IMG/VR virus record: IMGVR_UViG_2778261227_000004
From: a virus
Taxonomy: Duplodnaviria; Heunggongvirae; Uroviricota; Caudoviricetes
Length of the DNA: 29,708 nucleotides
Direction: 5' to 3' (one strand)
Position 1 is the first letter of the stretch; each line of letters begins with the position of its first letter. Of the stretch, positions 6,305 through 7,000 are shown in pieces. The notes beneath the pieces were generated by a model. The model was not told the origin of the DNA, searched no databases, and was given only the letters and a program-made list of their open reading frames with translations. Position numbers and translations under genes: made by a program.

Positions 6305-6623
6305 ATCTCATTCCTCCCGATATACCTTCCCCCAGATGCATCAGCTCTTCATCCGTGCGTTCAGGGATCACCCTGTCATCCGTAACCAGACTGAAATCAT
6401 CCGCCGGAATACGTTCACCGGACACCATCTGAACCATCAGCGACTTCAGTGTGGAAATCTGTGCATCCAGCCAGATATCCCCGAAACTCTGCTTCCGGAA
6501 GAAATCCCCCCATTCGCCCAGTTCTGACGCTGACATTTCTGATAACATCCGCCGCCAGTCTGCCCGCCGGAACTCACGGGCAAGCTGCATCACAAACTGC
6601 ATCTCCCGCGTCAGGACTTTTCC
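6288..6623 (-). CDS. T: T-frame segment of the G-T fusion tail assembly chaperone (needs -1 frameshift from G)
   Basis: ORF 6288-6602 lies in the -1 frame relative to G and stays open upstream to the GGAAAAG heptamer at 6617-6623; arrangement matches lambda G/GT. Confidence 0.7.
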   Translation of the reverse strand, partial: GKVLTREMQFVMQLAREFRRADWRRMLSEMSASELGEWGDFFRKQSFGDIWLDAQISTLKSLMVQMVSGERIPADDFSLVTDDRVIPERTDEELMHLGEGISGGMRFGPDC

Positions 6624-7000
6624 GGTGTCAGGGGAACCTGTTCACCGTTCTGAACATCACCGGTGGAGACCGGCATACCACTCAGGGATAAAACCAGACT
6701 GCCCCCGTCGCCAAGCGCGTCATAAGACCAGGTGTTTTTTACATCCTCATTCAGCGCATCCACATCCTGTGACGGGTCCGTATTCCACATTGACCGGGAA
6801 ACCAGCTAGGCATTGATATCCATCCCCATACGCAGAAATTCAATCTGACGATCCGCCACCGGCATGGCATCATCCAGGGCGTCAAACTCAGCTGTCCGTT
6901 TCTGGACAAACGCCAGATACTCCACCCGCTGAAGTCCGGATAATTCTGTCAGTACCACAGACTGATTACCGTAGTTAAATGTGTCCTGTTTCAGAAACAT
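6611..7000 (-). pseudogene. G: tail assembly chaperone G interrupted by in-frame TAG at 6806-6808
   Basis: ATG 7000 preceded by GGAGGGG; MFLKQDTFNYGNQSVVLTELSGLQRVEYLAF... resembles lambda gpG; after 64 codons an in-frame TAG occurs, and the same frame continues 64 more codons to TGA at 6611-6613. Combined length is about that of lambda G. Confidence 0.7.

Follow-up and report, generated by a model that had tools for sequence, protein, structure and literature searches.

The analyzed stretch of DNA, referred to as the window in the following, is the whole contig NLUL01000046.1 (29,708 bp) of the Escherichia coli draft assembly GCA_002232775.1 and is occupied by a lambda-like prophage, of which it holds the late region and part of the early one. 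Read along the minus strand, the genes are arranged in the order J (3' part), I, K, L, M, H, T, G, V, U, Z, head genes, terminase, lysis genes, Q, rusA and a P-like replication gene. The closest complete genome is that of the cattle strain E. coli RM8082 with 99.6% identity over the whole 29.7 kb, and the prophage family is common in bovine-associated E. coli. When the 48 corresponding coding sequences of RM8082 were mapped onto the window, 46 turned out to be uninterrupted and to encode mostly identical proteins, whereas the tail gene G and rusA are disrupted.

The second of these lesions affects the gene of a RusA-like Holliday-junction resolvase (23766-24121, minus strand). It is a 4-bp deletion at position 23976 in comparison to RM8082, which converts GGACAGGTTTAA to GGACTTAA on the plus strand, shifts the frame after about 50 codons and yields a 54-aa fragment; apart from G, no other gene of the 48 mapped is broken. 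The S49 peptidase gene (11076-12692, minus strand) differs from RM8082 at 10 amino acids, and an off-diagonal BLAST match between the two genomes (11203-11571 versus 11341-11709, about 85% identity) indicates that this protease/scaffold gene contains an internal direct repeat with an offset of 138 nt. High divergence from RM8082 was also found between 17000 and 17400, with 53 differing columns in 1 kb. This patch, which is located between the terminase and the lysis module, looks like a mosaic replacement, and the small ORF 17054-17251 has 22 of its 65 residues changed. Intact accessory genes of the window include a ParD/ParE toxin-antitoxin pair on the plus strand and thus opposite to the other genes (25593-26155), a TerB-family protein gene (20460-20885, minus strand) and a gene for an N6/N4 DNA methyltransferase (PF01555; 21471-22520, minus strand).

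Gene G is interrupted by an in-frame amber codon

Gene G encodes a tail assembly chaperone of the lambda gpG type and extends on the minus strand from 7000 to 6611. A GGAGG Shine-Dalgarno sequence at 7009-7005 precedes the start codon ATG at 7000-6998, which is followed by 64 sense codons, a TAG at 6808-6806, another 64 sense codons and the TGA at 6613-6611. The original prediction had placed the start at ATG 7000 behind a strong ribosome-binding site and had described the in-frame TAG and the frame that stays open up to the TGA; the sequence agrees with this in every coordinate. In relatives the gene has 129 codons, and the TAG takes the place of the TGG codon for Trp65. The mutated base is window position 6807, which is T on the plus strand here and C in the relatives. 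As a result, the reading frame is split into an N-terminal fragment of 64 aa (6809-7000, minus strand; 7.4 kDa), the product to be expected in a non-suppressing host, and a C-terminal remnant ORF of 59 aa (6611-6790, minus strand), whose ATG is located 15 nt past the TAG. No Shine-Dalgarno sequence is evident before this ATG, and the remnant would be made by termination-reinitiation only, if at all.

The neighborhood is the one known from lambda. On the minus strand, G lies between the intact gene of the V-like major tail tube protein with its Big_2 domain (7797-7057) and the intact gene of the tape measure protein (6304-3281; 1007 aa; PF06791 and PF09718), with the T ORF (6602-6288) inserted directly behind G. 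The 56-nt spacer between V and G contains a terminator-like hairpin at 7038-7021 on the minus strand (ACCCCGG-TATG-CCGGGGT), which is followed by TTTTTG, and an upstream in-frame ATG at 7030 falls inside this hairpin. A terminator is also annotated at this position in relatives such as mEp460 and Ayreon. The hairpin may set the ratio of V to G expression in the absence of antitermination.

Both parts of the interrupted frame belong to the same protein family. The N-terminal fragment matches positions 1-57 of the Pfam profile PF06894 (Phage_TAC_2) with 70.9 bits, and the 59-aa ORF matches positions 76-121 with 35.3 bits at a cut-off of 27. The two matches are co-linear, and an intact relative covers the profile from 1 to 121 without a break (130.6 bits). 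If the stop codon is repaired in silico, tblastn against phage genomes aligns the protein over its full length to phage cdtI (67%) and Gifsy-2 (50%), and residues 1-95, which span the stop position, to lambda G with 34% identity. RefSeq relatives have gpG annotated at the same coordinates (WP_000478930.1). A sequence search of the PDB with intact G as query gave zero matches at E <= 1. The proposed match to lambda gpG is therefore correct in so far as the two parts form one contiguous alignment with gpG-family proteins as well as with the profile; lambda itself is a distant relative with about 31-34% identity and a gpG of 140 aa instead of 129 aa, and the closest proteins are of the cdtI/Gifsy-2 type. 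Judged by its sequence, the G gene is a member of the PF06894 family by descent, but with the TAG at codon 65 it lacks the uninterrupted frame of a functional G and is a nonsense allele or pseudogene, unlike lambda G.

A putative frameshift site links G to T

The T ORF (PF06223, minor tail protein T) starts with ATG at 6602, ends at 6288 on the minus strand and lies in the -1 frame relative to G. It overlaps the start of the tape measure gene, and its protein is identical to the RM8082 copy. The open part of the T frame begins at 6641, and the 29-nt overlap with the G frame contains GGAAAAG, a putative -1 slippery heptamer (G GAA AAG, 6617-6623, minus strand) within CCG GAA AAG TCC TGA at 6625-6611. 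Consequently, the sequence features of a -1 frameshift are present, a heptamer together with an open -1 frame that leads into a PF06223 ORF. The original prediction that the stop codon of G adjoins the frameshift heptamer holds true for the position, as the heptamer ends 3 nt upstream of the TGA; the motif itself is GGAAAAG and not the GGGAAAG of lambda, and the stop follows one codon past the heptamer.

In other respects the arrangement resembles the lambda G/T pair, in which PF06894 and PF06223 are likewise combined between V (tube) and H (tape measure), T, in the -1 frame, overlaps G at its 3' end, and a slippery A-AAG lysine codon is located just before the G stop. The similarity is closest to the group of cdtI, mEp460, Gifsy-2 and the matching E. 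coli prophages with WP_000478930.1, which share 50-100% protein identity, the T protein WP_001161001.1, the order of the late operon and the identical slippery context. Among 244 intact relatives, 241 have retained this context, CCGGAAAAGTCCTGA; cdtI and Gifsy-2 belong to these 241, and the annotation of Gifsy-2 already designates T as the frameshift half. When 100 nt comprising the surroundings of the slippery site and the sequence behind it were folded as RNA, no structure beyond that of shuffled controls emerged (z = 0.04), and searching the literature for a documented role of GGAAAAG in slippage gave irrelevant matches only. Based on the conserved context and the analogy to lambda we infer that frameshifting at GGAAAAG operates here. 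T is then expected to be made solely as a G-T fusion, which has 237 aa in relatives, and the wild-type allele is predicted to yield G with 129 aa (14.3 kDa) and G-T with 237 aa (26.8 kDa). The client of the two lambda proteins, gpG and gpGT, is the tape measure protein, which they bind and coat, and the T domain recruits the tube protein; both proteins are required in a gpG to gpGT ratio of about 30:1 and neither is retained in the virion (PMC5009743, PMC3296357).

The amber codon is derived and private

To place the TAG in the context of the family, three public collections were scanned with the codon-free pattern GATATCAAYGCCNNNCTGGTTTCCCG, and loci obtained earlier were added. This resulted in 265 independent relatives from complete and draft genomes, IMG/VR contigs, metagenomes and GTDB representatives. 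Codon 65 is TGG in 265 of 265 relatives and TAG in none of them, and therefore the TAG has to be regarded as a derived nonsense allele and not as a gene boundary, in agreement with the original prediction, for which a sense codon at 6806-6808 in related genomes had been considered a possible objection. The DNA alignment with R1, VG35A2, C5 and phage cdtI is without gaps and has TGG at this position in all four, as has the whole cdtI/mEp460/Gifsy-2 group, from which the window is one base off. An exact 30-mer across the TAG is absent from the GTDB species representatives.

The difference is confined to a single nucleotide. In comparison to RM8082, the base of codon 65 is the only base difference in G and W65 to stop the only amino-acid difference, and in the 851-bp G-T region the same base is the sole difference from five complete genomes. 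Over the 10.9 kb from 591 to 11477, which hold the tail genes I to Z, position 6807 is the only private allele of the window against a panel of four complete genomes. The lesion is thus one base in an otherwise intact morphogenesis operon. At the protein level, the intact 129-aa G was found on at least 1000 contigs and the exact 64-aa fragment on seven, five of which are truncated by the contig end and happen to stop at codon 65. The fragment with an internal stop occurs solely in the window and on one other contig of 5-10 kb, which has the same neighbor genes and also carries the 59-aa fragment. Wherever else the exact S49 peptidase or FI variant of the window was found, it is accompanied by an intact 129-aa G (14 of 14 other places among the matches listed).

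Disrupted G genes as such are uncommon but unremarkable: among 257 related loci that include the gene in full, 244 have an intact G of 128-129 codons at the expected offset, and about 8 of the 257 (3%) have an apparently disrupted G, mostly on metagenome contigs with very low coverage. Taken together, the comparison of the sequences shows the TAG to be derived and private to this prophage. A recent origin is the best reading for the amber allele, which was observed in a single strain.

The same part of the gene is conspicuous in assemblies of other strains. In many independent drafts (loci L007-L011 and L014-L016) contig ends or starts cluster in codons 57-76 of G, corresponding to about 6790-6830 of the window; several contigs end 0-5 nt from codon 65, and for three the start coincides with ATG 6790. 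These breaks can be attributed to sequence common to co-resident prophages, and they fit a mosaic junction in codons 57-76: the 5' half of G varies among such prophages, whereas its 3' half is near-identical, as are T and the beginning of H. Strain C5, for example, has about 20 differences before alignment column 202 and almost none after it. In another locus, the Logan contig SRR12298854_1617, the same Dcm site has a 1-nt deletion at about position 700-715 of the contig (GCC TGG to GC TGG), which shifts the G frame. As the ORFs of T and the tape measure protein are also shortened on this contig, the deletion may be due to error-prone data, possibly from long reads, instead of being biological.

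The mutation is located at a Dcm site

The ancestral coding-strand sequence GCC TGG CTG contains CCTGG in all 265 relatives and hence a Dcm site (CCWGG), which corresponds to 6806-6810 of the window. On the plus strand the change is CCAGG to CTAGG, i.e. a C-to-T transition at the inner cytosine, the one that is methylated by Dcm. The 29.7 kb of the window contain no second CTAGG; the motif CCTAG also occurs once, at 21403. The most likely origin of the amber codon would be a spontaneous deamination of 5-methylcytosine that escaped very-short-patch repair, since exactly the base prone to this event is exchanged. Deamination turns a Dcm 5-methylcytosine into thymine and leaves a T:G mismatch, on which Vsr repair acts (PMC2715241). 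The intact gene has three CCWGG sites, and 5-methylcytosine-to-T changes at Dcm sites account for 2 of the 40 nonsense substitutions that are possible in G (2 of 14 transitions). The observed change is one of these two, which lends modest statistical support to this mechanism.

Dcm sites are the classic hotspots of spontaneous amber mutations in lacI (Coulondre et al. 1978, summarised in PMC12606429). As in lacI, the second C of CCWGG is converted to T, an amber codon is created, and the product CTAGG is a Vsr substrate sequence. In lacI the mutation changes CAG to TAG on the coding strand, whereas here the methylated cytosine is on the non-coding strand and TGG is changed to TAG; moreover, lacI has true hotspots, while the single event in G does not allow hotspot behavior to be demonstrated. 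A phage-encoded C5-cytosine methyltransferase was also considered as source of the methylation and rejected, as the sole methyltransferase of the window is of the N6/N4 type (PF01555).

Predicted consequence for the prophage

We consider it likely, with a probability of roughly 70%, that the TAG is a recent and private TGG-to-TAG mutation, probably caused by deamination at the Dcm site, which leaves the prophage tail-defective unless the codon is suppressed. The amber codon at Trp65, its Dcm context and the intactness of the other late genes are direct observations. In a non-suppressing host, translation of G would end after 64 residues and half of the chaperone domain would be removed. The fusion protein would be lost as well, because T is reached only via the -1 frameshift at the 3' end of G and the ribosome would never arrive at the slippery site 185 nt downstream of the TAG. 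The original prediction that both G and GT are truncated thus follows from the layout, in which the T frame is open from 6641 and would be entered at 6623-6617, downstream of the stop. The prophage would still excise, replicate, package its DNA and lyse the cell, yet it would build no functional tails, and according to lambda genetics filled heads without functional tails are the expected phenotype.

A comparable situation is known from Campbell's lambda sus mutants in gene G, which also have a UAG in the tail chaperone gene. Lambda sus G amber mutants form tail-less particles and are rescued conditionally on supE or supF hosts. These mutants are conditional lethals that were selected in the laboratory, whereas the allele described here arose spontaneously in a wild prophage, and nothing suggests that it was selected for suppressibility.

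Alternative explanations

A tail defect, dependence on a suppressor and a base-calling error had been named at the outset as the possible explanations; these are still the right alternatives, although their range is now narrower. That the TAG is an error of sequencing or consensus building in a strain that truly has TGG, or arose by mutation in the culture used for sequencing, appears unlikely. It is conceivable in principle as the allele is a single base in a single draft assembly, many draft assemblies break their contigs in the stretch that holds codon 65, and CCTGG is shortened by 1 nt in a Logan contig from a different run; in addition, Dcm motifs are sites of systematic error in nanopore base-calling. 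The use of long-read data only is disfavored, because 46 of the 48 genes are intact and there is no scatter of indels, with zero frameshifts in the 46 other genes, and the window has the character of a short-read contig, as it is 29.7 kb long and ends in sequences that are common to lambdoid prophages (gene J and replication genes). The nearest contig end is 6.8 kb away from the TAG, and De Bruijn assemblers output only k-mers that are found in reads. Furthermore, short-read errors have no reason to land on a methylated cytosine, and the Dcm context, even if it is a single event, would fit a real mutation better than a random error of this kind. Outside of the window, the rusA frameshift allele was found solely in the Logan assembly of run SRR3957182, and there is also a Logan record of the 64-aa fragment, on a contig that appears to carry the same split G. 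This suggests that a second assembler recovered both alleles from what are probably the reads of this strain.

If the amber codon is real, it could also be tolerated, either by a suppressor tRNA, by near-cognate read-through of UAG-C, by reinitiation at ATG 6790 or by G-T of a co-resident prophage, but this seems improbable to us. At residue 65 the cdtI/Gifsy-2 group has W, lambda has F and mEp213 has R, and due to this variation across the wider family the insertion of Tyr or Gln might be accepted. The other late genes are all intact, and natural amber-suppressor coliforms have been reported, but suppressors are rare in natural isolates; ARAGORN detected no tRNA gene in the window, which covers a part of the prophage, and thus no suppressor tRNA that could serve toleration or recoding. 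Read-through at the percent level is unlikely to suffice, because gpG has to outnumber gpGT by far (about 30:1; PMC5009743). The ATG 15 nt after the TAG could permit some reinitiation, but it lacks a Shine-Dalgarno sequence and the restart product would be without the first 70 residues and thus half of the domain. Complementation in trans or repair by recombination is plausible in so far as the 3' half of G and T are near-identical among co-resident prophages in many E. coli genomes; on the other hand, the TAG is present in no relative, so there is no sign that the allele is maintained. That a real amber allele is being propagated conditionally, with the help of a host suppressor or of the near-identical G-T of a co-resident lambdoid prophage, is in our opinion very unlikely. 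If it were true, tail assembly would be suppressor- or helper-dependent, and the prophage would be a natural counterpart of the laboratory sus mutants and a case of complementation between prophages. Programmed recoding, in which the TAG is read as sense by reassignment or by regulated read-through, has practically no chance of being correct and was rejected, as the codon is the sole in-frame TAG in about 9,000 codons of 47 coding sequences and is found in no relative, with TGG at the site in 265 of 265; in addition, the host is E. coli with its standard code. None of the 47 coding sequences of the window ends in TAG (24 TGA, 23 TAA), as would be observed in a TAG-reassigned phage, but with a usage of about 8% the probability of 0 in 47 is about 0.02, which is a weak and post hoc argument, and the lack of TAG stops can be explained by the fact that E. 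coli and lambdoid phages generally contain few TAG and CTAG. The avoidance of CTAG in E. coli is well known, and the lone CTAGG and the lone CCTAG of the window agree with it.

Implications

We therefore return to the recent loss of Trp65 as the preferred explanation, according to which the element should be a defective prophage at the first step of decay. For annotation this means that the ORFs of 64 and 59 aa are one pseudogene, G W65amber, which should be merged and flagged, and that predictors of prophage intactness would wrongly call the element complete. The finding does not change the current understanding of these phages, as it concerns a known gene in a known prophage family and not a new kind of system. 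It is a clean natural example of how one base change, located at a Dcm methylation hotspot, would disable a prophage whose other late genes are intact. As the N-terminus is common to G and to the G-T fusion through the programmed frameshift, one nonsense codon would remove two essential proteins at once.
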